Of a DNA stretch of 64,000 bases, positions 3,988 through 43,184 are shown piece by piece. The notes beneath the pieces are model-generated. The model searched no databases. It was not told where the DNA came from and saw only the letters and a program-made list of their open reading frames with translations. Origin of the DNA: a virus (taxonomy: Duplodnaviria; Heunggongvirae; Uroviricota; Caudoviricetes). A program made the position numbers and the translations under genes. The first letter of the stretch is position 1. Each line of letters opens with the position of its first letter. The stretch lies in the IMG/VR virus record IMGVR_UViG_3300028920_001939, one strand, 5' to 3'.

Positions 3988-3988
3988 A

Positions 3989-4711: not shown

Positions 4712-4909
4712 ATGCCCGTTGTATGGTATGTTGCAAGAGATAAAAAAACAGGAATTGATTTATTCAAAAAAGAACACAAATCTTGGGTTAAGCATGAATT
4801 GAAAAGAAGAGGTATAAAACAATCAACTGTTGATATTGTAAGAAAAACAATACCATACACATACGAAATTAAAAAATGGAATTGGCTTGGAGATAACTAT
4901 GACTATTGA
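4712..4909 (+). CDS. Hypothetical protein
   Basis: ORF 4700-4909; the ATG at 4712 (MPVVWYV...) is the likely start. Confidence 0.35.
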   Translation: MPVVWYVARDKKTGIDLFKKEHKSWVKHELKRRGIKQSTVDIVRKTIPYTYEIKKWNWLGDNYDY

Positions 4910-5267
4910 TAGATTAGGTATGAGAAAAGAATTCAATCAATGGAAAAAGAATCTTGCTGATAGAAATCTTGTATTAAAACAAGAAAGAAAGCAACTTGAG
5001 AAAGATAAATGGATTCCATTAGTTCAGGTTGGTGATATTAAATTGAAAAATAAAATAATGAAAACATTAAGACGAGGAGAATTCAAAGCACAAGAATTCA
5101 TTGAAACAACATCATCTGGTAATATGGGTTGTGTTATCAATATATTCGGAAAGCCAAGAGATGTGATGGATGCTAAAGAATGGTTAGATGATAAATATGA
5201 TTTGAATTTGAGAAATGCACCAGGATTACCTTGGATTGATGATTTCTTAAGCGAGAGTGATTATTGA
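4887..5267 (+). CDS. LG(L/M)xKEF-N-terminal family protein (dispersed member)
   Basis: N-terminus IDRLGMRKEFNQWKKNL matches the conserved N-terminal helix of the tandem array at 33018-35504. Confidence 0.5.
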   Translation: MEITMTIDRLGMRKEFNQWKKNLADRNLVLKQERKQLEKDKWIPLVQVGDIKLKNKIMKTLRRGEFKAQEFIETTSSGNMGCVINIFGKPRDVMDAKEWLDDKYDLNLRNAPGLPWIDDFLSESDY

Positions 5268-6017: not shown

Positions 6018-6019
6018 AA

Positions 6020-6845: not shown

Positions 6846-7514
6846 ATGGCAAAAGATATACTGAAAGAATTAGGAATGGAAAAGGAATTCAACGAGTGGT
6901 TAGAACGTAAGAAACCTCAGCTTGGTTTACTTTATCCACCTGTTAAAATACTTAAAAGTAAATCACAAAGAGGAAGGATTTTTCATAAGATAGAAGAAGC
7001 ACACCCATTTTCTGCATCTTACGGTCCATTAAGAGCAATATCACCTGTTAGTGGAAATATTTATTTACATGAGTTACGTGCTGCTGGTTTGGTTGATAAG
7101 CCACGAAGAGGTGAATATAAAATAACAGAGAAAGGTTTAGATGTAGCGTATGAAATGAGAATGAATTTAGGAAGATGGATTAACCCTGATATGTTAGTTA
7201 AACCTGAACCAAAAAGTAAACCATATACAGATATGGATCCTAAAAAGATACAAAGGATTTATTCACCAACCAATATTATACAAGAAGATACTCAAAAAGC
7301 TGCTGTTTTGCGTATGTTGAAAGATTATGGGAAAGTGAGATTCTCTGAATTATCAAGAGTTGCTGATCCTGAAAATCTCGGGATTTACTTGAGAAGAATG
7401 GAAGCTGCAGGTATCGTTGATAGACCTGGACGTGGCATTTATCGTTTAACTGATAAAGGTAAAGAAGTTTATGATGAATTTGTAGAAACAGGTCAATGGG
7501 GCAGAAGGAGGTAA
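6846..7514 (+). CDS. DNA-binding protein: LGMEKEF N-terminal helix plus two winged-helix repeats
   Basis: N-terminus KELGMEKEFNEWLERKKP. Two repeats of ...(L/I)xxAG(L/I)VD(K/R)PxRGxY(K/R)(I/L)T(E/D)KG, typical wHTH recognition-helix and wing. Confidence 0.55.
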   Translation: MAKDILKELGMEKEFNEWLERKKPQLGLLYPPVKILKSKSQRGRIFHKIEEAHPFSASYGPLRAISPVSGNIYLHELRAAGLVDKPRRGEYKITEKGLDVAYEMRMNLGRWINPDMLVKPEPKSKPYTDMDPKKIQRIYSPTNIIQEDTQKAAVLRMLKDYGKVRFSELSRVADPENLGIYLRRMEAAGIVDRPGRGIYRLTDKGKEVYDEFVETGQWGRRR

Positions 7515-27705: not shown

Positions 27706-30210
27706 ATGAAGAAGAATATAAGTAAATTGATAATACTAATGCTATTGTTTAACTTACTGTTTGTAGGATTTATATCTGAAGTAAATGCTACAGGCACCAC
27801 AACTTTAGTGATAGATCCAGAGAATACAAATGTAACTATAGGTGATTCTTTTATTGTTTATATCAATGCTACAATTGATACTGATGATGATATAGGTGGA
27901 TTTGAGATAACATTTTTCAATTTTACTTCTGGTGTTGTGAATATCACTAAAGTTAATGAAGGTGATGTGTTTGACGCATATCCATCTTTATTTGATCCAG
28001 GTGATATCTATAATGATACAGGTAACGTAACAGATTCTTATGGTGCTATATTGGGAGTTGAAAATGTATCTGGTGCCAAATCTCTTGTTTATTATAATAT
28101 ATTAGCATACGGCGTAGGCGTATCACCTATCAATTTTAGTGCTGTTTTATCTTATAGTGAAAATACTTTTATTCATACTGATAGTTTTGGTAACATAACT
28201 GTTCATCCAGAATCTATTACAGGCGCAACTGCAACTAATCATTCACATAACAGAATCAATTTAACTTGGGATACGCCATTCGGGAATGGAACTGATAAAT
28301 GTGTAGTATTCGCCAATTCTACTGGAAGTGCTGCTTCAAGAAGTCCAGGTGATGAAATTTACAACGGAACAAGTGATCATTATAATCATACAGGTTTAGA
28401 TCCTAATCAACAATGGAATTATTCTTTCTGGGGTTGGAATGAAACTGCTAGATTGTATTCAATGCTATTTCAACAAGATTCTAACACAACACAAACTTCT
28501 CCAGGTACTAATACTTGGATAATTTTAGGTGATGCAACACCGGCAACTGGTTCAACTTACGCTTATAAAACATCGCAAGAAGTTAATATCACTATAATAG
28601 GCGGTTATCTTACAGATACAATACAACCTATAACACATGGAGCTTTTGGGGGAGCATCAGATGAATTGCCACATCAATATATCTGTTATATGAATATAAC
28701 ATTTGGCGCAACACAATATAATGAAACAGAAGATTATATTTTAGATAGATACAATGGTGTTGTTGATTGGTCTCCTGCTGGAGATGAACCAGCGCCTGGT
28801 GCATCTTATTCAGCAAATTACACATACATATACAATACAGATTCATCATTCAAGTATTGGATTAACACAACAGCAGGGCAAAAAACAGAATCATCTGTTA
28901 ATTCTGGTTATAAAACTTATACAATGAGTGGTCTTACAGGTGGAACTGAATGGTGGAATGTTACTGCTGTATTTGATGGGAATAAAACCCAAGGCAATTA
29001 TTCGTTTGATATCAATCGAAAACCAAGAGGCGGTGGGGATGGAGGAGATTGGAATGAGGATCCTGAAAATTCAGCGCCTTCTGTTTCTGTATCAACAGCA
29101 TTAGCAGTAGATGTTGAAGATTTAGATGGCGATACTGTAAATGTAACTTTCTATTGGCAAAACGATACTCGAATAGATAACGATACTGTTGCTGGAGCAG
29201 GAACTGCTTCTGTTAATCCTTCAACTTTAGATTACAATACAGAATACGGCTGGTATGTGATTGCTGATGATTTTACTGATACAACAAGAGGACCCACAGC
29301 TGGGTATTGGACTTTTAATACATCTTCGTTGGGTATCAATCTAACAAAAGAATGGGTTTTAAATCCTGAAAACAACACTATAAGAAGTTGGATTAATGTA
29401 ACTAATACTGGTACTGCTAACTTAACAGGCGTTAATATATGGGATAGAGAATGCCACGGCTTGAACCTTGTTAGTTATAATAATTCAGTTGATTTTTCAG
29501 GCAACGGTCATTGGAATTGGGAAGCTGCTTATCTTAACATATCAGGTTATGATAATCACACTTACAAGATAACTATGTTACATGAATATTATACACTTGT
29601 GCCTTTAGCAAATGGTAGTGAAGTTTGGAATTATGCAAACGTATCACATCTCGGTCAAACATCTGGACAGAATGTATCTGGCTACTTTGTGGGATTTACT
29701 GCAACTAAAGAAGCAAACGTATCAAAGATGAATAGCACAATACTTGATGTAACGTGGTGGATAAATATCACTAATTCAGGTGATTTCAATCTTACAAATG
29801 TAACAGTAAACGAAACCTATGATGATTTTATCAATTATACAAGTAGTAATGTTGATCCTTTTGATGAATCTAATGTTACGTTTGTTATACCATTTATTAA
29901 GCCAAGTGAAACATTTAGTTTAATGGTTAATATATCTGCGACACCTAACTCAATAACTAATGGTTCAACAGTTTATAACAATATCACTATACGTTCTGAC
30001 CAGTTAGAAGAACAAACATTTAGTGAATCTTTGAGTTATGGTGGACGTACTGAAACTTTGAGAATTACATACGACACGACCTTGACCGATGTATCAGTAT
30101 ATGGAGATTCGTTGGTAATTATAATAGGCGTATTACTAACAATCTCTGCTTTGCTGATAGTAGTTGGATTGTTGTATAAATTCGGTTATCTCGGGAGAGG
30201 TGAGCAATAG
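27706..30210 (+). CDS. Large secreted glycoprotein (834 aa) with FN3 and C-terminal TM anchor
   Basis: Signal peptide (VNA/TG). FN3 (...NHTGLDPNQQWNYSFWGW). Many sequons. C-terminal TM LVIIIGVLLTISALLIVVGLLYKFGYLGRGEQ. Confidence 0.7.
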   Translation: MKKNISKLIILMLLFNLLFVGFISEVNATGTTTLVIDPENTNVTIGDSFIVYINATIDTDDDIGGFEITFFNFTSGVVNITKVNEGDVFDAYPSLFDPGDIYNDTGNVTDSYGAILGVENVSGAKSLVYYNILAYGVGVSPINFSAVLSYSENTFIHTDSFGNITVHPESITGATATNHSHNRINLTWDTPFGNGTDKCVVFANSTGSAASRSPGDEIYNGTSDHYNHTGLDPNQQWNYSFWGWNETARLYSMLFQQDSNTTQTSPGTNTWIILGDATPATGSTYAYKTSQEVNITIIGGYLTDTIQPITHGAFGGASDELPHQYICYMNITFGATQYNETEDYILDRYNGVVDWSPAGDEPAPGASYSANYTYIYNTDSSFKYWINTTAGQKTESSVNSGYKTYTMSGLTGGTEWWNVTAVFDGNKTQGNYSFDINRKPRGGGDGGDWNEDPENSAPSVSVSTALAVDVEDLDGDTVNVTFYWQNDTRIDNDTVAGAGTASVNPSTLDYNTEYGWYVIADDFTDTTRGPTAGYWTFNTSSLGINLTKEWVLNPENNTIRSWINVTNTGTANLTGVNIWDRECHGLNLVSYNNSVDFSGNGHWNWEAAYLNISGYDNHTYKITMLHEYYTLVPLANGSEVWNYANVSHLGQTSGQNVSGYFVGFTATKEANVSKMNSTILDVTWWINITNSGDFNLTNVTVNETYDDFINYTSSNVDPFDESNVTFVIPFIKPSETFSLMVNISATPNSITNGSTVYNNITIRSDQLEEQTFSESLSYGGRTETLRITYDTTLTDVSVYGDSLVIIIGVLLTISALLIVVGLLYKFGYLGRGEQ

Positions 30211-30223
30211 GCAAGAAAAATAT

Positions 30224-30247
30224 GTGGTCTCTCGAAAGAGGGACCAC
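30224..30247 (+). terminator. Stem-loop with GAAA tetraloop after the glycoprotein block
   Basis: gtggtctctc-GAAA-gagggaccac lies 14 nt after the stop of the 27706-30210 gene. No clear oligo-T follows. Confidence 0.3.
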
Positions 30248-30272
30248 CTTTCCTCCAAATGAGGTGTAAGAT

Positions 30273-31073
30273 ATGAAAAAGGTAAAAATAATAGAAGTAA
30301 AGCCGATGAAAATAAATTGGGTAAACGAAAGACATGATACAGATGGTGATATGATACCAAACTACTTTGATTGTAATCCTTGGAATCCTAATGAGCAAGG
30401 TTGGTTACACGATACTATAGATAAATTAAAAGATAGACATTCTGAAGTTAAGCAAATGAAAAAAGAAAGAAAAGGTAAAGAAGCTTATTTTTCTGCTGCT
30501 AAACAAGATGCACAACAACATGCACAAGTAGAAGCTGAAATACAAAAACAAGTTGATAGAGCAAAAAAACCTGTTTATCTATATGCAAAGATGGGAGATC
30601 CAAGATTGAAAGGTGGATTAAAATGGTATTTTATTGGTGGTTACGAAAGAGGCAATATCAATCAAGTTGTAAGAGAGTTATCATCACGACAAAATGTGCA
30701 CGGTGTTGAATCATCTGATAGAGCAGATATGGAAGGTTATCTTAATAGAAGGGATTTCGGTGAAGCAGTTAAGAAATATGGTAGTGAAAGATGGACTGGT
30801 AAAGATAAAGAAGGTAAAAAAGTTTATAGTGGTTGGAAAGAAAATGTAGAAAGAGGTTTAATGTCAAAAGATAAACAAGAAAGATTGAAAAGATTGAAAT
30901 CTTATCAAAAGAGGTTAGCTATTGAAAGAGCAATCACCGGTGCGCCACAAGTTATTGTGCATACAGGTGATGAATTTAATAGTATAGTAAGTAATAGGCG
31001 TCCTAAAAAAAGGATGATTTATCAAACGTATCCCCCAAGAATGAGAGGGGAAGAAAATATAGGAGGTGAATAG
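30273..31073 (+). CDS. KIIPVK-DTDGDG-DCxPWNP N-terminal family protein (266 aa)
   Basis: MKKVKIIEVKPMKINWVNERHDTDGDMIPNYFDCNPWNPNEQ, a TSP3-like Ca-binding motif in the N-terminus. The rest is Lys-rich. Confidence 0.55.
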   Translation: MKKVKIIEVKPMKINWVNERHDTDGDMIPNYFDCNPWNPNEQGWLHDTIDKLKDRHSEVKQMKKERKGKEAYFSAAKQDAQQHAQVEAEIQKQVDRAKKPVYLYAKMGDPRLKGGLKWYFIGGYERGNINQVVRELSSRQNVHGVESSDRADMEGYLNRRDFGEAVKKYGSERWTGKDKEGKKVYSGWKENVERGLMSKDKQERLKRLKSYQKRLAIERAITGAPQVIVHTGDEFNSIVSNRRPKKRMIYQTYPPRMRGEENIGGE

Positions 31074-31388
31074 ATGAAAATGAAAAAAATAAAAATAATA
31101 CCAGTAAAGTGGATACCAGACAAGCATGACACAGATGGAGATGGTGTACCAAACTACAAAGATTGTGTACCTTGGGACTCAAAAAGGCAACACTTTAAGC
31201 CATTCGGTGTTTATTCTATAGGTAACAACAGATACGCAGTATATCAACAGCAATTAATGGGTGCTGGTTATGTAAAGAGAGGCAAACCATTATTTGTTGG
31301 CACCGAATACGAAGCGAAGCAGTTTATAAATCAGATACCCGTAAATCCAGAAAGTTACGACGCTGAAACATCTATATTCGAGAGGTAA
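31074..31388 (+). CDS. KIIPVK-DTDGDG-DCxPW family protein (104 aa)
   Basis: MKMKKIKIIPVKWIPDKHDTDGDGVPNYKDCVPWDSKRQH. Confidence 0.5.
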   Translation: MKMKKIKIIPVKWIPDKHDTDGDGVPNYKDCVPWDSKRQHFKPFGVYSIGNNRYAVYQQQLMGAGYVKRGKPLFVGTEYEAKQFINQIPVNPESYDAETSIFER

Positions 31389-31394
31389 TAGAAA

Positions 31395-31577
31395 ATGAAG
31401 GCGAAATTCACAATAGAATTAGAAGCAGATAAAGAAGAAATAAATGATTTCGTGAAGAACATAAATCATTTTGTGCATAGACGTGATAATATACTCATAG
31501 ATGTAAAACCAGTTGGCGGTTATATACCAAGATTCTATTTACCCAAAAGAAATTATTTAAAAATAAAAGGGAGGTGA
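31395..31577 (+). CDS. Hypothetical small protein
   Basis: 60-aa ORF. Confidence 0.3.
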   Translation: MKAKFTIELEADKEEINDFVKNINHFVHRRDNILIDVKPVGGYIPRFYLPKRNYLKIKGR

Positions 31578-31583
31578 TAATAT

Positions 31584-31733
31584 ATGGCAAGAAAAAGAAT
31601 TGTAGCAACAAGTGCTAAATCAGCTCGTAGAAAAGCAGGTGGAAAAACAATTGTTGTTACAAAAGTCAATTATATCAAAGGTTCTAAAAAAGGCAACAAA
31701 AAGACCTATGATGTAACTACTAAAAAGAAATAA
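31584..31733 (+). CDS. Small basic protein (possible nucleic-acid binding)
   Basis: Not in the track (49 aa). MARKRIVATSAKSARRKAGGKTIVV..., pI clearly basic. GGGAGGTGA SD upstream. Confidence 0.35.
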   Translation: MARKRIVATSAKSARRKAGGKTIVVTKVNYIKGSKKGNKKTYDVTTKKK

Positions 31734-31782
31734 GGATTTATTTATAGTTTGAACAAAAAAATAAATAGGAGGTAGTAGCCAA

Positions 31783-31887
31783 TGAAAAAGAAAAATAAAT
31801 ACACAAAAGCCGAACATAAAAAAGCAGCTAAAAAAGCTTGGCGTACACGCCGAAAGAAATACGGCAAAAACGGCGTACGAGGTTAAG
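31783..31887 (+). CDS. Very basic mini-protein (34 aa)
   Basis: MKKKNKYTKAEHKKAAKKAWRTRRKKYGKNGVRG. AGGAGGT SD upstream. T-rich terminator-like tract (gcttttttgtttg) follows. Confidence 0.3.
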
Positions 31888-32031
31888 CTTTTTTGTTTGT
31901 AAGTGGGGTTGATAAAACCCTTCTTCTGTTGTCAATCCCATTTACCTGCTAAAATATCAACGAAAAGTATATACTTAACGTGTTAGAAATCCATTACCGT
32001 GGATCTTTATATCAGTAAAGTTGAAAAAACT

Positions 32032-32454
32032 ATGGAATATAGAAAAATTAATTCAAAATACATTGATGATATTCTCAAACTTGATAGTAGATTTGGATCT
32101 CCTTGGTCAAGAGGACTTTATTTAGATAGATTATCAATGTTTCCCGATTTATCATATGGTGTTTTTAAAAATGGTAAACTTATTGGGTTTATTTTAGGCA
32201 AAAAAGAACCTATTGGTAATATCAAGATTAGTAGATTGGTTGTTGATGAGAAATACGAAGGTCGTGGCATAGGCGGACATTTAGTTGATGTTTTAACTAA
32301 AAAAGCTGATGAGAAAACGAAGAAGATGAGATCTATTATTCGTGAAAGTAACAAACGCTCAATCAAGTTGCATAAGCACCGTGGTTTTGAGATTTATGAT
32401 TATCATACTTATAAAGATGGTGAAAAAGGAATTAAATTTTTAAAGAGGTTATGA
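32032..32454 (+). CDS. GNAT-family N-acetyltransferase
   Basis: Acetyl-CoA binding motif A (LVVDEKYEGRGIGGHLVDVL = h..hhV...Y.G.GIG..Lh). Track start 31999 is GTG; the ATG at 32032 is more likely. Confidence 0.55.
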   Translation: MEYRKINSKYIDDILKLDSRFGSPWSRGLYLDRLSMFPDLSYGVFKNGKLIGFILGKKEPIGNIKISRLVVDEKYEGRGIGGHLVDVLTKKADEKTKKMRSIIRESNKRSIKLHKHRGFEIYDYHTYKDGEKGIKFLKRL

Positions 32455-32455
32455 A

Positions 32456-32632
32456 ATGAAATGGTTTGTAATGAAAAAAGTGGATGAAATATCACATTAT
32501 GGTTATAGTGAAATAGTTTATCATAAAGCAAGTAAGTATTTCTCAACTAAAAAGAAAGCGCAAAATGAAATGAAGAAAATGAAAAAGAAACATCCAAAAA
32601 CATATTATAAAATAGGTGGTGAACCTGAATGA
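32456..32632 (+). CDS. Small basic protein
   Basis: Not in the track (58 aa). ...KKKAQNEMKKMKKKHPKTYYKIGG. Confidence 0.3.
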   Translation: MKWFVMKKVDEISHYGYSEIVYHKASKYFSTKKKAQNEMKKMKKKHPKTYYKIGGEPE

Positions 32633-33021
32633 AGAAGATAAAAGTTATACCAATTAAATTGAATTTAGATACAGATGGCGATGGAGTTAAGGATTGTAAG
32701 GACTGTAAACCTTTCAACCCATATAAGCAACACACGAAGAAATGGAAAGAAAAGATGTTGAAAGAAGAACGATTCAAACGAGAACACGCTGATGATATAA
32801 TATGGCATTTAGATAGGGGATTTTCTGAAGGACAAGCATTAACAAGAATGAAAAAGAAACGAAGTTCTAATCTTGAAAAACTAATATCAAGGCACGAAAG
32901 AATATCAAAGATACCTAATGCAACTGCTTTTTGTGGTGATGATATAAGAAGAACAAAAGATGTTGTTATGTATATTCACGATAATAAATTGAAAGATTTA
33001 GGTTCAGAGATAAGATTATGA
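32629..33021 (+). CDS. KIIPVK-DTDGDG-DCKPFNP family protein (130 aa)
   Basis: MKKIKVIPIKLNLDTDGDGVKDCKDCKPFNPYKQH. ATGA overlap. Confidence 0.5.
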   Translation: MKKIKVIPIKLNLDTDGDGVKDCKDCKPFNPYKQHTKKWKEKMLKEERFKREHADDIIWHLDRGFSEGQALTRMKKKRSSNLEKLISRHERISKIPNATAFCGDDIRRTKDVVMYIHDNKLKDLGSEIRL

Positions 33022-33272
33022 AAACGATAAAGAGATTGGGATTGGAGAAAGAGTTTGAAGCATGGAAAAAAGATATACTTGATAAAAGACCTTTGGTTTT
33101 GGATGATTTTAAGATTGGTGATAAAGTATTGTTTGTGAGAGGAGATATACCTAATAGTCCATTTTTGAATAAGAAAGGAAAAGTTATAGGAAAAACTGGT
33201 AACCTTCTTCTTGTAGACCTAGAAGGATATGGAGAAGGTAACTTTTATCCTTATAAATTTAAGTTGATATAA
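33018..33272 (+). CDS. LGLEKEF-KOW family protein, array copy 1
   Basis: MKTIKRLGLEKEFEAWKKDI followed by the KOW/SH3-like motif IGDKVLFVRGDIPNSPFLNKKGKVIGK. Confidence 0.6.
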   Translation: MKTIKRLGLEKEFEAWKKDILDKRPLVLDDFKIGDKVLFVRGDIPNSPFLNKKGKVIGKTGNLLLVDLEGYGEGNFYPYKFKLI

Positions 33273-33457
33273 TGACCCAAAGAAAACGTGTTAAGATAGA
33301 ACAAACACCGAATTATATCATATACAGATATGGCTATCTTAATGATGCTCGAAAGAAACAAGAACAGTTGGAGAATGAATATGGTTACGAATTTGATATA
33401 TACAAAGAGAAATTTAAAGGCGGTTATGATTATTTTATAGCGGAGCCCATAAGATGA
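33272..33457 (+). CDS. Hypothetical small protein inside the array
   Basis: 61-aa ORF. Tyr-rich. ATGA-type overlap. Confidence 0.35.
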   Translation: MTQRKRVKIEQTPNYIIYRYGYLNDARKKQEQLENEYGYEFDIYKEKFKGGYDYFIAEPIR

Positions 33458-33747
33458 GTAAAGATACAATTAAGCGATTAGGATTAGAAAAAGAATTCAA
33501 AAAGTGGATGATAGATATAAATAAACCTGTTAAATTTAGAGCAGGCGATAGAGTTATGATAACAGGTAAAGCAGAATCACACAAACATGGATTTACTGAT
33601 AGTTGGGTTAGAGAAATGGATAACACGATAGGAACTGTGGGCACAATAAGAGAAATTGATGAAAGTGGTAATGTCGCAGTATTTTTTACATATGAATATA
33701 ACTATTTTTGGTATCCTAAATTTGTTTTGAAAAAGGTTGAAAGATGA
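33454..33747 (+). CDS. LGLEKEF-KOW family protein, array copy 2
   Basis: MSKDTIKRLGLEKEFKKWMIDI then AGDRVMITGKAESHK. Confidence 0.6.
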   Translation: MSKDTIKRLGLEKEFKKWMIDINKPVKFRAGDRVMITGKAESHKHGFTDSWVREMDNTIGTVGTIREIDESGNVAVFFTYEYNYFWYPKFVLKKVER

Positions 33748-34151
33748 AATTCATAAGAGCAACAGATAGCAGTAAATACAAGAAATCCCGTAGATTAACC
33801 TATATGAAACCATCTGAATTTCTCGATTTATCACTTCCACAAAAACCCACTAAAAGTAAATACGATTCTCAATATTACGAAAAAGAATCACTTGATAATC
33901 TCGAAAAGCGTATGAAGCGTGGGTTAGAGATAGATGCGCCTTCTTTTGATGTTGATATCAAACACAAGGCAATCGTTGGTCACGCTGGACGACATCGTGC
34001 TTTTACAGCACATAAGTTGGGAATATCAAAGATACCTGTTTATGTGTATTACAAAGAAGGTCCCTATTATATTGAGCAGTTAGGCACAAATATCAAAGAT
34101 GTTGAGAAATTTAAACCGAAAAGTGAGTTGTTTGGGTTGCATTTGAAATGA
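33744..34151 (+). CDS. ParB/Srx-like domain protein (tentative)
   Basis: AIVGHAGRHRAFTAHKLGISKIPVYV resembles the G(R/H)HR..A motif of ParB N-terminal/sulfiredoxin domains. Called by eye only. Confidence 0.35.
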   Translation: MKFIRATDSSKYKKSRRLTYMKPSEFLDLSLPQKPTKSKYDSQYYEKESLDNLEKRMKRGLEIDAPSFDVDIKHKAIVGHAGRHRAFTAHKLGISKIPVYVYYKEGPYYIEQLGTNIKDVEKFKPKSELFGLHLK

Positions 34152-34402
34152 AAACTATAAAAAGATTAGGATTAGAAAAAGAGTTCAAGAATTGGTTAAA
34201 AGATATTAAAGATAATCCTTTTAGAAGAAATCAAAGACTTGAATTGATGAATATGGAAGATATGCCAAGAAGAATGTTTAAAGGTCAAATGGTACGAGTT
34301 GTTGCAACAGATTATGGAGATAATGTTTTACTTTATAGTGAAGGCAGAACTTTTAGATTTCCAAAAAAAGAGATGAAGAAGCATTTTAAGGTGTTATATT
34401 GA
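34148..34402 (+). CDS. LGLEKEF-KOW family protein, array copy 3
   Basis: MKTIKRLGLEKEFKNWLKDI...KGQMVRVV. Confidence 0.6.
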   Translation: MKTIKRLGLEKEFKNWLKDIKDNPFRRNQRLELMNMEDMPRRMFKGQMVRVVATDYGDNVLLYSEGRTFRFPKKEMKKHFKVLY

Positions 34403-34662
34403 AAAAGAATATTATCAAGAAACTTGGTATGGAAAAAGAATTCAAAAATTGGGTTAAGAATATAGAATCAAGACAAGGTATAGATATCGGTTCAAGAGTT
34501 GAGTTAATTGAAAATTTTAGAATATATCCTATAGGAGCAAAAGGCACCGTTAAAGGTTCTAAACCTTCTAGATTAGAACCTGGAATAAGATTACTTACAG
34601 TATCACTTGATAATTATGAAACTACACATATTTATGATAAGAGGTTCAAGTTGATAAAATGA
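34399..34662 (+). CDS. LGLEKEF-KOW family protein, array copy 4
   Basis: KKLGMEKEFKNWVKNI...GSRVELIENFRIYPIGAKGTVKG. Confidence 0.6.
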   Translation: MKKNIIKKLGMEKEFKNWVKNIESRQGIDIGSRVELIENFRIYPIGAKGTVKGSKPSRLEPGIRLLTVSLDNYETTHIYDKRFKLIK

Positions 34663-34955
34663 AGAAAAAGAAAAACACTTTGAAGCGATTGGGTATGGAA
34701 AAAGAATTTAACAATTGGGTTAAAGATATTCGTTCAAAGCCAAGAATGCAAGTTGGTTCAAGAGTAAGAATAAAAGAAAATGTTAAAAGATATAATTTAA
34801 CAACACCATTTAGTGAAGGTGTTATTGTTGAATATGAGCCGGTTACTTCATCAATGTGGATAAAATTTGATAAACTTACTTGCCCAAGAGAAAGATTAAG
34901 TGAAACATCACGAAGGAAATTTCAGATTGAAAAAAGATATGTTGAATTGATATGA
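34659..34955 (+). CDS. LGLEKEF-KOW family protein, array copy 5
   Basis: LKRLGMEKEFNNWVKDI...VGSRVRIKENVK. Confidence 0.6.
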   Translation: MKKKKNTLKRLGMEKEFNNWVKDIRSKPRMQVGSRVRIKENVKRYNLTTPFSEGVIVEYEPVTSSMWIKFDKLTCPRERLSETSRRKFQIEKRYVELI

Positions 34956-35254
34956 AGAAAAGCAACACGTTAAAACGATTGGGATTAGAAAAGGAATTTG
35001 CTAATTGGTTAGTTGATATCAGAAAACGAGAAAGCGGATTTAAAATAGGGGATAAAGTTTTTTTGAATATACCTAATAAATCTTTTGAAGATTATTGGAA
35101 ATATTATGGTGTTCGTAGTGGATCTGAAGGAACTATTGAAAGAGATGCAGGAAAATGTTCAATTCATGGAGAAAATAAAGAATGTTATCAAATTGACTTC
35201 GGTAGACGTATGTTATATGTGCCAAAAAATCAGTTGAGGAGGCGAAATTATTAG
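34952..35254 (+). CDS. LGLEKEF-KOW family protein, array copy 6
   Basis: LKRLGLEKEFANWLVDI...IGDKVFLNIPNK. Confidence 0.6.
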   Translation: MKKSNTLKRLGLEKEFANWLVDIRKRESGFKIGDKVFLNIPNKSFEDYWKYYGVRSGSEGTIERDAGKCSIHGENKECYQIDFGRRMLYVPKNQLRRRNY

Positions 35255-35504
35255 CAAAAATACATTAAAAAAACTTGGATTAGAAAAAGAATTCGCAAAT
35301 TGGAAGAAAACAATTAACGATAAAGTTGAATTATCATTTGATAAACTTACTGTTGGTACTAAATTTGAAGTAATAAAAGGACCCTTTAAAGGAGAAAGAG
35401 GTATAATTAAGAGTAGAACTCCTTCTATTTGTTATTGTGATATTGGTGAAGATGTTGATGTTACTTTAGAAAAAGAAACTTTTGATTATATTAAGATTTT
35501 ATAA
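35250..35504 (+). pseudogene. LGLEKEF-KOW family, array copy 7, lacking a canonical start codon (ATT in place of ATG)
   Basis: Frame reads ...I-I-S-K-N-T-L-K-K-L-G-L-E-K-E-F-A-N-W-K-K-T-I...VGTKFEVIKGPFKGERGIIK (textbook KOW GxxKGxxGxV). There is no ATG/GTG/TTG between the upstream in-frame stop at 35235-35237 and the motif. ATT sits where the paralogues have ATG, overlapping the upstream stop. Confidence 0.45.
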
Positions 35505-35593
35505 TTTTTTAAAAACCGATACCATTATAACGGTAACTGCCTATATATAGATTACTATATAGAAAAAATATAGTTGATATATAGGGTGTTTCT

Positions 35594-35899
35594 ATGGAAG
35601 TAAAAAAAATATCTATGGATATTCCCGTTGAAGATTATAATTGGTTAAAAGACGAGAATATCAATATGACCGAACTTTTTAAAGGGGCTATTGAAAGAGT
35701 AAGATACAATAAAACAGAAAAAGTATCGCCATTGATGTTTTTAGCATCAATAATGGGAATTGTTTTCTCTATTGCATTGATTGGAATAGGTTTAACACCA
35801 ACACCAATACATTTTTTCACAAGAGGTTTCTTGTGTGTGTTGGGAGGAGTTATGGCAGTATCAACCATGACAGCATATATAAGAAGTAAAAGGAAATAA
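35594..35899 (+). CDS. Membrane protein (soluble N-terminus plus 2 TM)
   Basis: 101-aa ORF preceded by an AT-rich region with TATATAG repeats. Confidence 0.45.
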   Translation: MEVKKISMDIPVEDYNWLKDENINMTELFKGAIERVRYNKTEKVSPLMFLASIMGIVFSIALIGIGLTPTPIHFFTRGFLCVLGGVMAVSTMTAYIRSKRK

Positions 35900-35904
35900 G
35901 TAGT

Positions 35905-36351
35905 ATGATGAGGGGAGATTATAATCCTAATGCTATTCAGGATGCTTCATTAACTGCTGTAGAGTATATACTCGACCCCTCAATACCAGCTTCTCAAAGA
36001 AAGTATTTTGAAAGATTTTATGTTTTATTCACAAACATAATGGCGCTTGGTAATATTCAGAGAAGGGAAATATTTGCTATTATACTTGCTTTTGATGAAA
36101 TAACACTTCTTATGGAAATGGGTTTATATGAAGAAGCTCGTCAATTAATGGGAAGGGAATTGATGAAAATGCAAGTATCACGTTCTGTTGATGGTTTCCA
36201 AACTTTGTTTGGTCAACACGGCATACAGAGAACAGAACATATAGAGAAAGTGTTAGCAAGAACCAAGAAAAGAAAGGGTATAATAAATAGAATCGCTGGT
36301 GGATTTGGTGGAAAGAAGAAACAAGAATATATAGAGGAGGAAGTATATTGA
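35905..36351 (+). CDS. Hypothetical protein
   Basis: 148-aa ORF. Confidence 0.45.
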   Translation: MMRGDYNPNAIQDASLTAVEYILDPSIPASQRKYFERFYVLFTNIMALGNIQRREIFAIILAFDEITLLMEMGLYEEARQLMGRELMKMQVSRSVDGFQTLFGQHGIQRTEHIEKVLARTKKRKGIINRIAGGFGGKKKQEYIEEEVY

Positions 36352-36926
36352 TATTTGCATTAGCTTTTATATTTTTAATAGCAGGAGTATTCTTATGTGG
36401 AATAGTAGGTTTAATGCCTATACAGATACAAATGGTAATACCCGATATGTTTAGAGTAGTGTTTTTCTTTTTAGGCGGTATCATTTCTGCAATAGGACTT
36501 ATCATTCTACGTGGAAGAGCAGAAAAAACAGGTTCTATACATCTGTTAGAATTTGGTAGACCAGGAACAGTTAATTGGTTTTATTTTTATAAAGATGATA
36601 CTATGAAGATAACACCTGCTATAAGAGATGTTGAAGCACAACTTTATTCTAAAGAGTTAGATGCTCAAATAACTGAATTGAAATCGTATAGATTATTTGA
36701 TCACTCTATAAGAATTGTGCCAGAAGGTGTTGGTCACGCTGTAGATTTAGATATGGTTTTGTATTCTAATCTGTTTAGGTCTAAATGGGGTTTTCAATCT
36801 ATACGTTCAGCTAGAAGAAATATTTTTTCAAGTATGATAAATATGTTTAGGCAACCAGAGTTAAGTGAATTGCCCAAAGAGAAAATGTTAGTATCAAAAG
36901 GTGAAGAAGATGGCGAGAATAAATAA
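36348..36926 (+). CDS. N-terminally membrane-anchored protein
   Basis: Two N-terminal TM helices. ATGA-type overlap. Confidence 0.45.
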   Translation: MIFALAFIFLIAGVFLCGIVGLMPIQIQMVIPDMFRVVFFFLGGIISAIGLIILRGRAEKTGSIHLLEFGRPGTVNWFYFYKDDTMKITPAIRDVEAQLYSKELDAQITELKSYRLFDHSIRIVPEGVGHAVDLDMVLYSNLFRSKWGFQSIRSARRNIFSSMINMFRQPELSELPKEKMLVSKGEEDGENK

Positions 36927-37416
36927 GAGAGTTAAAGATTTACAAGATGAAATAAATGAGGATTTTTATAAATCACAAGAACCTGGTTACAGTAGTAATC
37001 AGAGAGATGTGCAACAACATATGCGAACACCTCCTTCAAGGGTGTATTACTCGGACCGTGAGGAATCTCACGGTTTCGGTGATACACGAGATTCTGTTGG
37101 TATAGCAAAAGATATAGAAGATAATCCAATGCCACCTGGAATATGTGAAGTTATGATAGGTGGTCGTCCAGTTGATTTACATATGTTTGAAGATTATATG
37201 GTGTGGAGAATATCACCATATCAAATGAGAACTGTTTTAAGATATAGAACTGCAAGAATAATGGAAGAGATAAAAAATTATTCATCTTCACCTAAAGCAA
37301 AGTTTGGTTCAAATATATTCATACTTATCATTATAGCAGTTGCTTTTCTTGTAATAGGTGTATTGGTTCTTATGTATATGCCACAAATTACGCAATTCTT
37401 TAAGGGTTTCGTATGA
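36901..37416 (+). CDS. C-terminally membrane-anchored protein
   Basis: C-terminal TM IFILIIIAVAFLVIGVLVLMYM. Confidence 0.45.
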   Translation: MKKMARINKRVKDLQDEINEDFYKSQEPGYSSNQRDVQQHMRTPPSRVYYSDREESHGFGDTRDSVGIAKDIEDNPMPPGICEVMIGGRPVDLHMFEDYMVWRISPYQMRTVLRYRTARIMEEIKNYSSSPKAKFGSNIFILIIIAVAFLVIGVLVLMYMPQITQFFKGFV

Positions 37417-37557
37417 GTAAATTGATTGATTCTATACGAGAACAATTTCGAAGTGCTAAAGATCAATTAATGTTTAGTTGGGATAAAGGTGCCAATATTG
37501 GCAAACATATGAAGAAATCACATAAGAATAAGTTAAAAAAATTGAGAGGTAAGAAAG

Positions 37558-38130
37558 ATGAAAAATAGAGCTAAAGGTAGTTTTTTAATATTAATGATAG
37601 TTTTTATCATATTCTCAATGGGTTGGTTTGTATTAAATACTGTTAATAGCCAAATAGATGGGCAGAATGATTATATGAATACAACTGCTTATACTTCGAA
37701 TACAGTATTCAGTATTGTCAATGTTGTAATGGTTGTAGGTGCTATTGTAGTTTGCGTTGGTTTAGCAAGTTGGTATGTATCAACACCAGAAAGATACAAG
37801 AAAGGTAATAAGTATGTAAGAATGTTGATAGATTTTTTAGATACAACTACTTATTATTTTGCTTATGGTTTACTTGCTATTGTATGTATAGGTATCCCAA
37901 CGATACTGATATATCTTGCTTACAGATTAGCAGTATATTCAGCAGAAACAGGTGTTGGTTTAGAGATAGGGAAATGGGCAATAGTAATTATCGTACTCTA
38001 TTTCGGAATTGCTGGACTTGGTTATCTGTTTAAACGTAAGATATGGGATAAGTGGAAAAAGAGAAGATCAGAAAGCGAAGAAAAAGAATATAAAGATAAC
38101 TTTAAATATCTACCAGGGTTGTTTAAATGA
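37558..38130 (+). CDS. Multi-TM membrane protein
   Basis: 4 hydrophobic helices. Confidence 0.5.
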   Translation: MKNRAKGSFLILMIVFIIFSMGWFVLNTVNSQIDGQNDYMNTTAYTSNTVFSIVNVVMVVGAIVVCVGLASWYVSTPERYKKGNKYVRMLIDFLDTTTYYFAYGLLAIVCIGIPTILIYLAYRLAVYSAETGVGLEIGKWAIVIIVLYFGIAGLGYLFKRKIWDKWKKRRSESEEKEYKDNFKYLPGLFK

Positions 38131-38525
38131 AATCTTATGATGATTTATCAGATAAAGAACAAGAAAAACTTGCTTCATATATACAATCTATAACTTATTT
38201 TAAGTTAAGAAGTAATCAAACAAATTCAGAATATATGATGTTCTTGATATGGGTATCAATTTTAGCATCTGCGTTTTTAGTGTCTGGTTGTGTTTTGGCA
38301 TCCAATTTTCCATCAATTGCAGAAATGTTTTTAATTGTTTCTATAATAACATTCATTTCAGGGTTGGTAATTTATTCGTTACTTTGCGTATATCAATTTT
38401 ATCTTGAAGAAAGAATTAACAGGATGCTGTTTCTTATATACGGTTATACAGGTATAAAAACAGAAGTTTTCGATATCAAAAAATCTGATATTGATAGTTT
38501 GAAAAAAGTTTATAAAAAGAGGTAA
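38127..38525 (+). CDS. Membrane protein
   Basis: 2-3 TM helices. ATGA overlap. Confidence 0.45.
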   Translation: MKSYDDLSDKEQEKLASYIQSITYFKLRSNQTNSEYMMFLIWVSILASAFLVSGCVLASNFPSIAEMFLIVSIITFISGLVIYSLLCVYQFYLEERINRMLFLIYGYTGIKTEVFDIKKSDIDSLKKVYKKR

Positions 38526-38530
38526 TGTAA

Positions 38531-39067
38531 ATGTTTGATGTAGAAGCAAAAGAAGCTAATGTTTCATCTTTAGAGTTGTTATTGATGAGAAGATTAGAAA
38601 AGGCGTTTGAAGCAGTTGATGCACATCAAGGAGAAATCTTTGATGAGATTGTAGAAGAAATGGAAATGTTATTCAAGTTGAAACCAAAGATATACAAACA
38701 ACTACTTGCTTACAAAGAAGAATTAACTAAAAACATAACAATATTAGCTGAACGAGCAGGACAGTTAGCAGGCGCCGCTAGAAACGAGATACAAAGAAGG
38801 GCATTTTATGAAGGTGAAGTAGATTCGATTGAATGGGATGCAAGAAAAGATTATCTTGACCAGATTGTATCAATAATGGGAACTAACCAAATGATACCGA
38901 TGGAAACTGTAGAACCAGCAACGCTTGAAAGAGCAGAACCGATTGAAGAAGCACCAGAAGAAGAAGAAGAAACTACTGATGAACCAGAAGAAAAACCTTT
39001 AAAAAAGAAAGATAAACCAAAATTATCATTTACACCTAAAAAATCTGATAAAGAGTTTGAAGTATAA
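38531..39067 (+). CDS. Hypothetical protein with acidic C-terminal tail (scaffold-like?)
   Basis: C-terminus EEAPEEEEETTDEPEEKPLKKKDKPK. Confidence 0.45.
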   Translation: MFDVEAKEANVSSLELLLMRRLEKAFEAVDAHQGEIFDEIVEEMEMLFKLKPKIYKQLLAYKEELTKNITILAERAGQLAGAARNEIQRRAFYEGEVDSIEWDARKDYLDQIVSIMGTNQMIPMETVEPATLERAEPIEEAPEEEEETTDEPEEKPLKKKDKPKLSFTPKKSDKEFEV

Positions 39068-39942
39068 TGGTATCAAAGTTAGAGATTATTGCAGGTCAAA
39101 TTCGTGATAGAATTCATAATCATGACCCTGACCACGGTGGAGTGTTTTTAGAAGTAACAGGATCACCAGGTTCAGGAAAAACAAGTTCTATGTTATCAAT
39201 GATAAGAACTATAATGAAAGAGCATCCTGATGAGAAGATATTTTTCAGTAATACTTATTTTGCGCCTATGCAGAGTTTGAGAATAGGTATGGAGAACCAT
39301 AAGATACTTATTAAGAGAGGTGCTAAAGTTACCTTTCACGATAGGGATAAGAGATTGAAACAGATTTATCCTAAAATTACATATTTCTCTGATTTTGATG
39401 AATTGTATGATAGTGCAGAAGCAGGTAAGATAAATGCTGTTTTCTTTGGTAATAGAGCTGAATGGAGAAAATTTTTACATTACTTGCGAAGTGTTGGGGA
39501 ATGGTGCCACGTATGTTTTGATGAGTTTGGTGAAGTAGCACCTGCTCATAAAGCGGGAAAAGAGTATTGGAATATAGGTAAATTCTCTGATGATTTGAAA
39601 GAAGTAAGAAAGTGTATGATAAACGTATTTGAGAACACACAATCAGTTACAGATATTGATTTTAGGGTTAGAACGAAAATAATGGTCTTTATTTATTTAC
39701 CTGGAGCAAGAGCAAACAAGAATGGTAGAGTTACACAAGCAGCAATTGATAATTTAGATTTGAATCGTAAAAAGGGTAATGAGGCGTATCTTGAGTTTTC
39801 TGGTCGTTTCGGTAAACTACGTTTTAGAGATATATTTCCTCCAGCGAAACAACATTGGGAAGCAAGAATACCTGAAGTTTTAGAAGGAGAAGAAGATGAA
39901 CAAAAAGGAAACGAAAGCGCTTCAAGTAAGAGCGACTCTTAA
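39067..39942 (+). CDS. P-loop NTPase (candidate FtsK/HerA- or A32-like packaging ATPase; function unproven)
   Basis: Walker A VTGSPGSGKTSS at about aa 35. Walker B HVCFDEFGE at about aa 150. 291 aa with no additional recognizable domain. Confidence 0.5.
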   Translation: MVSKLEIIAGQIRDRIHNHDPDHGGVFLEVTGSPGSGKTSSMLSMIRTIMKEHPDEKIFFSNTYFAPMQSLRIGMENHKILIKRGAKVTFHDRDKRLKQIYPKITYFSDFDELYDSAEAGKINAVFFGNRAEWRKFLHYLRSVGEWCHVCFDEFGEVAPAHKAGKEYWNIGKFSDDLKEVRKCMINVFENTQSVTDIDFRVRTKIMVFIYLPGARANKNGRVTQAAIDNLDLNRKKGNEAYLEFSGRFGKLRFRDIFPPAKQHWEARIPEVLEGEEDEQKGNESASSKSDS

Positions 39943-40354
39943 AGATACACGGCGACGTCAAGATGAACTTTTTGAACTTCTTCGTAAAAAAATATATTAT
40001 AACACATCATTAAGTATTGAAGAAAGAAAGATTTTTTCTGGCTTAACTTCAGAAGCAATGCTTTCACAAGCGTATAGGCATTGTTATTATCTTGCGCCTG
40101 ATAACAAAAGAATAGATTTAGGTTCAATACGTTTTTTATGTCTTAATTTGTTAGATGTATCTGGCAAAGCTATCAATATAAAGGATCCAACAACTGATAG
40201 TAAATATAGAGTATCAATAAAAGAGATTTGGGAAATTTTGTATAATAAGTGCAAAGAAACAAGTCAAGCAGCGCTAAGAGAAGCGTTGAAGATGAGTAAA
40301 GAGTTACCTAAAAGAGAAGAACCAACTTCACTTGATTACTCCTCTGAAGATTAA
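39896..40354 (+). CDS. Hypothetical protein
   Basis: 152-aa ORF overlapping the upstream gene end. Confidence 0.4.
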   Translation: MNKKETKALQVRATLKDTRRRQDELFELLRKKIYYNTSLSIEERKIFSGLTSEAMLSQAYRHCYYLAPDNKRIDLGSIRFLCLNLLDVSGKAINIKDPTTDSKYRVSIKEIWEILYNKCKETSQAALREALKMSKELPKREEPTSLDYSSED

Positions 40355-40422: not shown

Positions 40423-41253
40423 ATGAAAACGAAAAGTATGTTGACGCTGATGATTTTCATAGTGATGCTTGGTGTGATCGCTATAGTATTTACAACATGC
40501 ATAACAATAGTACCTGCAGGGCATGTTGGAGTACATGATTTATTCGGTAAAGTAAGTAAAGATGAATTTCAACCAGGATTGAAGTTTAAGAATCCATTTG
40601 CTCATATTGAAATGATGAGTGTAAAAACACAAGAATATACAATGACATATACAAAAGGTGAAGGAGCAATTCACGGATCAGATGTTATATCTTCTCTAAC
40701 AAAAGAGGGATTAACAGTTAATTTAGATATGACAGTTCTTTATCGTTTGAGATCAGATTACGCAAACGAAGTCTATAAAACTATTGGACCTGATTATGTT
40801 AATGTTATTGTAAGACCACAAATCAGAACAGCAATACGAGATGTAGTGGCTTTATATGAAGCAAAACAAATCTATAGTGCTGATAGACAAAAAGTTGCAC
40901 TAGAGATTTTTGATGAAATGGAACCTGTTTTATCAAAAAGAGGGATAGTATTAGAAAGTGTTTTATTGAGACATGTACAACTTCCAGCAGAATTAACTAC
41001 AGCAATTGAGGCAAAATTAACTGCTGAACAAAATATAGAAAAGAAAGCTTTTGAAGTTCAGGAAGCACAACAAGAAGCAAATAGAAAAAGAGAAGAAGCA
41101 CGAGGTATAGCCGACGCAAATATTATTATATCAAATAGTTTAACTAACAATTATTTGAGATGGTATTGGATAAACGGGTTACAAGAGCAAGATTCAATCT
41201 ATTATGTGCCTGTTGGTTCTGACGGATTACCTATAATGAAAATTATAGAGTGA
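40423..41253 (+). CDS. SPFH/band-7 (prohibitin/stomatin-like) membrane protein
   Basis: N-terminal TM then IVPAGHVGVHDLFGKV...PGLKFKNPF...TQEY, characteristic of SPFH domains. Coiled-coil, Glu/Ala-rich C-terminus. Confidence 0.65.
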   Translation: MKTKSMLTLMIFIVMLGVIAIVFTTCITIVPAGHVGVHDLFGKVSKDEFQPGLKFKNPFAHIEMMSVKTQEYTMTYTKGEGAIHGSDVISSLTKEGLTVNLDMTVLYRLRSDYANEVYKTIGPDYVNVIVRPQIRTAIRDVVALYEAKQIYSADRQKVALEIFDEMEPVLSKRGIVLESVLLRHVQLPAELTTAIEAKLTAEQNIEKKAFEVQEAQQEANRKREEARGIADANIIISNSLTNNYLRWYWINGLQEQDSIYYVPVGSDGLPIMKIIE

Positions 41254-41258
41254 TAAAC

Positions 41259-41441
41259 ATGACCGTTTTTTCAAGGGAAGAAGAAGTAAGAGCAATTTCT
41301 TCTGCTTTTCTTTCTCTTATTTTATTTATAACAACTATTATCTCTGGATTTTCAGGTTCGCCTATTTGGGTAGGTCTTTTTATAATATCAGTTGCTTTTT
41401 TAATACCTATAATAAGAATATTTTTAGAACAAACAGAATAG
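41259..41441 (+). CDS. Small 2-TM protein downstream of the SPFH gene
   Basis: Track ORF 41250 (GTG); the ATG at 41259 is likely. Two TM helices. Confidence 0.35.
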   Translation: MTVFSREEEVRAISSAFLSLILFITTIISGFSGSPIWVGLFIISVAFLIPIIRIFLEQTE

Positions 41442-41445
41442 TTTG

Positions 41446-41507
41446 ATATGGTAAATACCGAAATCTTTATAAAGCGATAAAACATTCTACCTATGGAGTG
41501 ATCTGAA
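41446..41507 (+). promoter_or_regulatory. Conserved 60-nt promoter/5'UTR element, copy 1 (upstream of MoxR/CobS-like gene)
   Basis: ATACCGAAATCTTTATAAAGCGATAAAACATTCTACCTATGGAGTGATCTGAAATG is about 85% identical to the copy at 43123-43187. Contains a BRE/TATA-like segment and a GGAGTGA SD. Confidence 0.5.
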
Positions 41508-42719: not shown

Positions 42720-42738
42720 TCTTTTTGAGGTCGATTAA

Positions 42739-42918
42739 ATGAAAACTGTAAAAGAGATACATAAGGGCTATCAAACAAGAACAACAATATTTATAATGTT
42801 ATCTATACCTATTGCTATTGGTGGATATATTTTAAATAATAATTTTATATTGGGATATGGTATAGCATCACTTATTGTTGCATTCTCTTTATATCCTAGC
42901 CCAAAAGATTGTAGGTGA
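42739..42918 (+). CDS. Small 2-TM protein
   Basis: Not in the track (59 aa). Confidence 0.3.
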   Translation: MKTVKEIHKGYQTRTTIFIMLSIPIAIGGYILNNNFILGYGIASLIVAFSLYPSPKDCR

Positions 42919-42924
42919 AATAAG

Positions 42925-43122
42925 ATGAAAAGAAATGAGTTGTTAGATTGTTTATTTAGTTACGGTTTATCATTAGGTATTATATGTATTGCTGTTTTTG
43001 CTATACTATTATCATTGAAACTTGATAGTGTTATACCACAGTTTGCTTTTCTTGGTTTATATGGTGTTGGTAGTGCATCATTAGCTATTGGAATGTTATC
43101 AGATATTGTGTTGAGTAGATAA
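42925..43122 (+). CDS. Small 2-TM protein
   Basis: 65-aa hydrophobic ORF between the AAA+ and vWA genes. Confidence 0.35.
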   Translation: MKRNELLDCLFSYGLSLGIICIAVFAILLSLKLDSVIPQFAFLGLYGVGSASLAIGMLSDIVLSR

Positions 43123-43184
43123 GTATGGAAAACACCGAAATACTTATAAAGGGATAAATTATTCTACCTATGGAGTGAAATCGA
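43123..43184 (+). promoter_or_regulatory. Conserved 60-nt promoter/5'UTR element, copy 2 (upstream of vWA/CobT-like gene)
   Basis: GTATGGAAAACACCGAAATACTTATAAAGGGATAAATTATTCTACCTATGGAGTGAAATCGAATG. Confidence 0.5.

Follow-up and report, generated by a model that had tools for sequence, protein, structure and literature searches.

Why should a run of small viral proteins share one short N-terminal peptide and differ so much in what follows it? The question is raised by seven array genes, copies 1 to 7, in a 64,000-nucleotide stretch of DNA from a tailed virus (Caudoviricetes; IMG/VR record IMGVR_UViG_3300028920_001939); the whole of this stretch is referred to here as the window. The products join an N-terminal peptide, which we call the tag, to a C-terminal domain that is, in most copies, predicted to be a small beta-barrel. 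We propose that they form a virus-specific multigene family of two-module proteins in which the tag would act as an address for docking and the barrels would supply varied binding, and in which copy 7, a gene that has no canonical start codon, would be expressed. Taken as a whole, we judge this proposal to be about evenly balanced between right and wrong.

The tag is an N-terminal helix of roughly 20 residues with the consensus [IL]-K-x-L-G-[ML]-E-K-E-F-x-x-W, and nine genes in the window carry it, the seven of the array and two dispersed ones. When a tag profile was run against the six-frame translation it found exactly nine copies, where chance would give none, at 27.8-46.3 bits, and the next best stretch scored 9.3 bits. 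Scanning the same translation with the regular expression LG[LM]EKEFxxW returned eight open reading frames (ORFs); ORF 4887-5267 has the variant LGMRKEFNQW. The back-translated tag core, GGNWTRGARAARGARTTYNNNNNNTGG, has 8 matches in the window and 0 in 100 shuffles.

A likeness that recurs at successive gene starts could belong to the DNA and not to the protein. Some nucleotide element repeated along the array, be it a promoter, a recombination site or a ribosome-binding or downstream box, would account for the purine-rich 27-mer core that is repeated at each gene start, and recombination did happen within that core. The codons speak against such an element, as they vary at invariant residues: Leu is written as CTT, TTA or TTG, Gly as GGA or GGT, and Lys, Glu, Phe and Arg in two ways each. 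Over the 13-codon tag core, the 21 array pairs have a mean proportion of synonymous differences (pS) of 0.83, against a mean proportion of nonsynonymous differences (pN) of 0.15. Between the window and its positional orthologues in a related contig, L008, tag pS (0.37-0.89) is not lower than barrel pS (0.29-0.67). The original prediction had named a repeated nucleotide motif as the outcome that would overturn it and synonymous sites as the place to look; those sites point the other way. Since synonymous divergence is not suppressed in the tag, it is kept as a protein, and we conclude that it is held by purifying selection at that level. The nucleotide element was rejected on synonymous-site divergence and varied codons, and we give it only the slightest chance of being correct.

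Conservation of the tag extends well beyond this virus. In 46 clusters of related proteins its G, the E at +4 and the W at +8 are invariant, and the tag is much more conserved than any position of the barrel. Seven consecutive positions, L-G-M/L-E-K-E-F, are conserved and cover all faces of a helix, a pattern that a simple amphipathic docking helix fails to explain.

Tags also resemble one another within a genome. Their identity is 69% within and 58% between genomes (permutation p 2e-4); at identical tag residues, codon identity is 46% within and 48.5% between genomes (p 0.83), and this is so even though the barrels have orthologues across genomes. Copy 7 illustrates the point: counted by hand, its tag matches that of copy 6 at 15/20 residues and that of its L008 orthologue at 10/20, and its barrel is 60% identical to that orthologue. 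A likeness within genomes that exists at the protein level and not at the codon level fits co-evolution with one partner specific to each lineage. Recent gene conversion among the tags is unsupported: at the nucleotide level they share 70-85% identity, and their codons agree no more often within genomes than between them. When other genomes are searched, the tag and the barrel of most copies find their best matches in different genes, which in sequences this short is no proof that tags and barrels have been shuffled.

The tag is not confined to the array. Of the two dispersed members that had been predicted, the one given as 4887-5267 is real, but its start is more likely the ATG at 4899, which has GGAG 6 nt upstream, than the alternative TTG at 4887. 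Its protein has no family match at E 0.001 or at curated cut-offs in Pfam, PHROGs and NCBIfam. The other, at 6846, is indeed the tag followed by a double winged helix-turn-helix (wHTH), with Mrr_N, HTH_45 and HxlR all above their cut-offs; AbiEi-like wHTH matches were recorded in PADLOC, and a word-indexed protein search found no homologue beyond the protein itself. Relatives extend the series. L013 encodes a 121-residue protein with the tag and an unrelated C-terminus, and two adjacent paralogues (1815-2333 and 2335-2838) in which an internal tag, RLHHxGMExxYxxW, lies between SH3-like N-terminal and wHTH-like C-terminal domains. The expectation that the peptide is reused on different scaffolds is thus borne out by a double wHTH, a non-barrel protein, the SH3-tag-wHTH arrangement and the 121-residue protein.

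Turning to the C-terminal module, we built AlphaFold2 monomer models of copies 1 and 7 from an 18-sequence alignment. That of copy 1 has a mean predicted local distance difference test score (pLDDT) of 87.4, with a helix at residues 2-22 followed by five strands. That of copy 7 has a mean pLDDT of 77.6, with a helix at 3-8, a break at L-G-L, a second helix at 12-23 and a barrel at pLDDT 82-88. In both, helix pLDDT is below barrel pLDDT, and the predicted template modelling score (pTM) is 0.54-0.65. The predicted small beta-barrels were recovered in these two copies, which model as SH3/KOW-like barrels, with the five strands of an SH3-like small barrel and a KOW-type fold. Most of the fold neighbours are barrels that bind RNA, DNA or polymerase, and MIB1 is among the matches. 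The Sm/LSm proteins also come to mind, as they too have an N-terminal helix, a five-stranded bent sheet after it and seven paralogues; a hetero-heptamer of the Sm type was rejected on the fold neighbours, and an Sm fold neighbour together with Sm1/Sm2 motifs was not found for the array.

The original prediction described the C-termini as divergent. This holds for their sequences, no two window barrels matching each other by BLASTP at E<1e-3, but not in the sense of unrelated scaffolds. A barrel-only profile made from 39 foreign family members, for which shuffled controls reached at most 13.5 bits, picks out five of the seven array barrels, with scores of 25-45 bits (Table 1); on this profile evidence most array C-termini belong to one diverged domain family, within which copy 7 and a lost copy, P0015, constitute a KOW-like subgroup. 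In Pfam, copy 2 is the only one to exceed a curated threshold, that of SH3_15 (PF18346, the Mind bomb/HERC2 repeat; cut-off 24 bits), and the other six have no SH3_15 match at E<=1. A profile of 54 repeats from SH3_15 proteins gave copy 2 24.5 bits, copy 5 19.9 and the rest at most 11. Conversely, the 18-sequence family profile, which includes members of the copy 2 type, retrieved P0017 (E 2.6e-74, 17 stretches) and P0018 (E 7.2e-49), both of which Pfam assigns to SH3_15 at 235-318 bits, and in a PDB sequence search it matched HERC2 (E 6.9e-4); nothing there matched the tag. The window proteins differ from the known SH3_15 proteins in being viral, single-domain and about 90 residues long, and the 67-position PF18346 model does not include the tag.

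The earlier description of the barrels as KOW-like stands as a statement about fold. By sequence, the best score against Pfam KOW (PF00467, as in NusG/Spt5), that of copy 7, is 18.4 bits against a cut-off of 22.3, and KOW5_SPT5 reaches 18.8 bits in the array against a cut-off of 27. The array matched neither an NGN family nor a ribosomal one, the NCBIfam Spt5/NusG models scoring 15-16 bits against cut-offs of 70-150, and the window proteins differ from NusG and Spt5 in having no NGN domain. In sequence the barrel comes nearest to the Mind-bomb repeat, in fold to KOW domains.

How quickly these barrels change is apparent from the comparison with L008. Flanking and interspersed genes are 78-91% identical, with nonsynonymous divergence (dN) of 0.05-0.15 and a ratio of nonsynonymous to synonymous divergence (dN/dS) of 0.10-0.35; positional array orthologues are 32-57% identical, with dN of 0.27-0.70 and dN/dS of 0.33-0.74, and one barrel reaches 1.06. 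Comparison with a second relative, L002, gave the same pattern. The array copies thus change about 5-10 times faster than the conserved genes that flank them or lie among them, and the rapid diversification that had been proposed for the family is confirmed.

The array changes in number as well as in sequence. An ENA contig, L001, is 99.97% identical to the window over 20 kb and has an eighth copy between copies 4 and 5. Comparison of the two shows that a 248-nt deletion in the window removed this copy, leaving as copy 5 the first 50 nt of the extra gene (P0015) joined to the body of the next (P0002) at a 14-nt identity that encodes part of the tag (Table 1). A Logan contig reproduces the seven-copy form exactly, with the same chimera, and a k=141 assembly should not be misled by a repeat of 14 nt; we therefore take the seven- and eight-copy forms to be a real polymorphism. 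We conclude that array copy number changes by recombination within the tag-coding sequence. Among the other relatives, L002 has 7 copies, L008/L007 at least 8, L011 4 and L010 at least 3.

Copy 7 poses a question of its own, since the original prediction had found no canonical start for it and had weighed decay against non-AUG initiation. After an in-frame stop (TGA, 35235-35237) the sequence reads GGA GGC GAA ATT ATT AGC, and no ATG, GTG or TTG occurs in 88 stop-free codons, as had been noted; no other plus-strand stretch of the window that is free of stops for at least 60 codons lacks a start in this way. The ATT is common to three assemblies, the window and two others, and aligns with the start codons of the paralogues. 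It overlaps the preceding TAG by one base (ATTAG), and the last codons of copy 6, AGG AGG CGA AAT TAT TAG, make up the ribosome-binding site of copy 7. Across 80 inferred window genes, 12 start with TTG (copy 4 included) and 4 with GTG. A Shine-Dalgarno match of at least 4 nt precedes 70% of the 80 but only 17% of random positions; the modal spacing in the genes is 7 nt, and a 6-nt match such as that of copy 7 is found at 0.7% of random positions. The L008 orthologue starts with ATG, and copy 7 is the best conserved of the five positional pairs between window and L008 (57% identity, dN 0.27). Because AGGAGG stands at the modal spacing, the orthologue has an ATG and this copy is the best conserved, initiation at ATT is favoured, and to judge from these signals it is more likely than decay. 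Ribosomes would initiate at the AUU at 35250 either on terminating copy 6 at its TAG or on being recruited by AGGAGG.

Copy 7 could instead be a recently silenced pseudogene, or ribosomes might reach it only by a +1 shift at AGG AGG C, so that it is made as a fusion with copy 6. Tandem AGG codons are shift-prone sites in E. coli; the +1 frame after the TGA at 35235-35237 is the frame of copy 7, and both versions are in keeping with the missing start codon and with a dN/dS of 0.61 that is not significantly below 1. Set against these are an ORF that is intact in an AT-rich genome, its conservation in L008, a confident barrel model, the 6-nt Shine-Dalgarno match at modal spacing and the alignment of the ATT with the paralogues' starts; we consider silencing or fusion improbable, though not negligible. 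E. coli infC, in which an AUU start is combined with a Shine-Dalgarno sequence, offers a precedent for the pairing of a near-cognate start with AGGAGG. It differs in that no autoregulatory role is implied for copy 7, whose start is predicted. No gene was called at copy 7 in the gene calls of L001 or the Logan contig.

How might the two modules work together? We propose that every member, the DNA-binding wHTH protein included, would be docked by its tag onto a single common partner, and that this partner would differ from one virus lineage to another. The barrels would give different binding specificities for host or viral macromolecules, and this variety of specificities would drive barrel diversification. 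An analogy is provided by the cargo peptides of encapsulins and bacterial microcompartments, in which a short amphipathic helix and a linker send unrelated cargo to one shell partner; the likeness is one of analogy only, as no shell or compartment genes are evident.

A shared partner may not be needed. The helix could be an integral or self-association element of a nucleic-acid-binding barrel (KOW, Sso7d-like or ribosomal), with the paralogues drifting under relaxed constraint. The identity of the fold neighbours fits this, as do the basic character of the array proteins, pairwise dN/dS values below 1 and the helix of the copy 1 model, which is continuous with the barrel. Such an element would hardly be expected on non-barrel domains, where the same tag is found, nor to be far more conserved than any barrel position. 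Tags that change in concert within lineages at the protein level, a helix with pLDDT below that of the barrel and a pTM of only 0.54-0.65 likewise argue against it, and we hold it to be a minority possibility.

Several observations nevertheless weigh against docking of a tagged, diversifying family as we propose it. Since our models are of monomers, the helix might lie against the barrel of its own protein or serve for self-association. Two L013 proteins have the tag inside the chain and not at the N-terminus, and old gene conversion, now saturated at synonymous sites, could also have made tags alike within genomes. No pairwise dN/dS is significantly above 1, and the high values may reflect relaxed and not diversifying selection. 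The array proteins have isoelectric points (pI) of 9.4-10.2; because their neighbours in this AT-rich genome are equally basic, this gives no lead to a ligand. As to copy 7, its dN/dS does not establish constraint, and its expression may have been lost recently.

A more specific version of the address model is suggested by bacteriophage T4, whose internal proteins carry a short conserved N-terminal tag, the capsid-targeting sequence (CTS), on diverse, fast-evolving small proteins encoded in a plastic locus (PMC3012670). Here too the tag would be a virion-targeting signal, possibly removed by a maturation protease, and its cargo would be injected with the DNA to serve as counter-defence or takeover effectors. 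The window family shares the logic of a conserved tag on variable proteins in a plastic locus, and further points in favour are the presence of the tag on a DNA-binding wHTH protein, a run of L-G-M/L-E-K-E-F that is more suggestive of a site for recognition or cleavage than of a single helix face, and the position of the array after the tail gene block. The T4 proteins are packaged in virions and their tag is cleaved by the prohead protease, steps that would be putative here; the two families share no sequence similarity, and the window cargo is mostly of one fold. Nor does the locus adjoin head genes, its companions in the string being the GNAT and the ParB-like gene. The window yielded no identifiable gene for a prohead protease or a scaffold, its peptidase at 7867 is akin to a Zn-aminopeptidase annotated in podovirus-sized (40-45 kb) phage genomes and not to a maturation protease, and a tag that is internal in two L013 proteins is ill suited to such a role. 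On balance, virion targeting in this form seems unlikely.

A broader formulation, for which we see an equally slim prospect, treats the tag as a hitherto unknown virion- or partner-targeting peptide of an uncultivated tailed-virus clade with replication genes of archaeal type. It would deliver hypervariable barrel effectors and a DNA-binding protein to a common hub, and its coding sequence would serve as the crossover point at which cargo is gained, lost or swapped.

Family members also occur outside this virus. An exhaustive HMMER profile search yielded 891 proteins at E<=1e-3, the top matches being large multi-repeat proteins, and showed at least 46 clusters of 84-100-residue family proteins, all metagenomic, in which the tag begins 7-15 residues from the N-terminus. 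A word-indexed protein search returned 16 family clusters; this kind of index is blind to the family (a 48-column tag-centred profile gave 2 matches), and exhaustive HMMER was needed. No relative was found among GenBank phages by megablast, for which window positions 30000-40000 alone served as query, or in IMG/VR and GTDB genomes, and the only five loci that a metagenome scan for relatives returned came from a single JGI sample series. The tag is covered by none of the Pfam or PHROG models, no hint of what the array does came from PADLOC, PHROGs or NCBIfam, and a literature search for SH3 arrays of archaeal viruses turned up nothing relevant. The tagged-barrel family is thus real, undescribed and outside the curated family libraries searched. 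That it acts in host interaction or anti-defence, as had been proposed, stays a conjecture, no function having been found in PADLOC, PHROGs or Pfam.

The array belongs to a tightly packed string of genes with overlapping stop and start codons (31999-35504), in a window of 32% G+C with nearly all genes on the plus strand; promoter and terminator scans were uninformative in such AT-rich DNA. The string runs from a RimI-like GNAT through a 58-residue gene, a 130-residue gene, copy 1, a 61-residue gene, copy 2 and a ParB-like gene to copies 3-7, and all seven array ORFs lie where the original prediction had placed them (Table 1). Its statement that every copy starts at an ATGA junction is correct for five of the seven and fails for copy 4, which has TTGA, and for copy 7, with its ATTAG.

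Table 1. Coordinates and properties of the tagged genes, their neighbours in the gene string and associated sites in the window
Feature	Positions	Strand	Barrel-only profile (bits)	Remarks
Dispersed member, tag and 100-residue non-barrel C-terminus	4899..5267	+		Tag profile 35.1 bits
Dispersed member, tag and two winged-helix domains	6846..7514	+		Tag profile 27.8 bits
RimI-like GNAT acetyltransferase	31999..32454	+		Heads string; TIGR01575 rimI 47.6 bits, cut-off 86.4
130-residue gene directly 5' of copy 1	32629..33021	+		Its TGA overlaps copy 1 ATG
Array copy 1, 84 residues, tag and barrel	33018..33272	+	25.2
61-residue gene within array	33272..33457	+		Outside the family; 90% amino acid identity to L002 homologue, dN/dS 0.06
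Array copy 2, 97 residues, tag and Mind-bomb-repeat-type barrel	33454..33747	+	41.4	SH3_15 27.7 bits
ParB-like 135-residue gene within array	33744..34151	+		GHAGRHRAF stretch read by eye
Array copy 3, 84 residues, tag and divergent C-terminus	34148..34402	+	3.8, undetected	Tag present
Array copy 4, 87 residues, TTG start	34399..34662	+	45.5	AAGGTG 5' of TTG
Array copy 5, 98 residues, chimera	34659..34955	+	27.1	P0015 5' end and P0002 body
Crossover, 14-nt identity	34695..34708	+		ATGGAAAAAGAATT; encodes M-E-K-E-F
Array copy 6, 100 residues	34952..35254	+	29.4
Shine-Dalgarno sequence AGGAGG	35237..35242	+		7 nt before ATT 35250
Array copy 7, 84 residues, probable ATT start, KOW-like barrel	35250..35504	+	14.5, marginal

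Related contigs keep this neighbourhood: GNAT, 130-residue homologue, 61-residue and ParB-like genes, then genes for a 101-residue membrane protein and a 148-residue protein. A GNAT starts the gene string in every relative; it is found at the equivalent position in L002 and L011, and Acetyltransf_1 is recorded for the identical gene in L001. L011 has GNATs at 3869-4288 and 5828-6325, the second directly after the array. A speculative idea is that the tagged proteins may be acetylated by the GNAT, which is of the N-terminal acetyltransferase type, below the curated cut-off. Both the 61-residue and the ParB-like gene are present in L002, and the latter also in L008 and L011; wherever the sequence of a relative covers these positions, the two lie inside the array. 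They are 83-90% conserved (the ParB-like gene 83-85% in L002 and L008), and the surrounding array copies are 32-57% identical. Against PHROG models the ParB-like gene gave weak ParB-like matches only (E 0.09).

The 130-residue gene has homologues 5' of the arrays in L002 (9289-9834) and L013 (2835-3197 and 3194-3589) and no Pfam match. Its product ends in ..KLKDLGSEIRL, which resembles half a tag, and contains an Asp/Cys-rich stretch, DTDGDGVKDCKDCKPFNP, that by eye is like a thrombospondin type-3 calcium-binding repeat.

Elsewhere in the window, a PriL-like primase large subunit (52920-53900; its 23.2 bits narrowly exceed the cut-off of 22.4) and an RFC-like clamp loader (54743-55699) suggest, by sequence match, an archaeal-type replication module. 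The tail-associated DUF4815 protein and the Zn-peptidase have their nearest relatives in bacterial phages. The peptidase, of 397 residues (7867-9060), matches phrog_4191 at E 1.8e-67 and is 31-37% identical to annotated Zn-peptidase or aminopeptidase genes of Pectobacterium, Rhizobium and Pseudomonas phages; no other phages contribute as many matching records as those of Klebsiella. A block of small proteins at 35594-40354, several of which look membrane-spanning by eye, precedes a row formed by a Band_7 (SPFH) gene, a MoxR-type AAA ATPase and a CobT/VWA protein (40423-45182).

The feature is nonetheless of a familiar kind: small viral proteins of known fold that form an expanded, rapidly evolving family. 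The strain-level deletion shows array turnover directly, by microhomology recombination within a conserved module, and copy 7 is a clean candidate for AUU initiation, a class that gene callers miss. If the tag is a virion- or partner-targeting peptide, it would be a second, independent invention of the strategy of the T4 internal proteins. As an address peptide it could send arbitrary cargo to a defined viral or host partner, and it would mark all members of an effector repertoire in uncultivated viruses.

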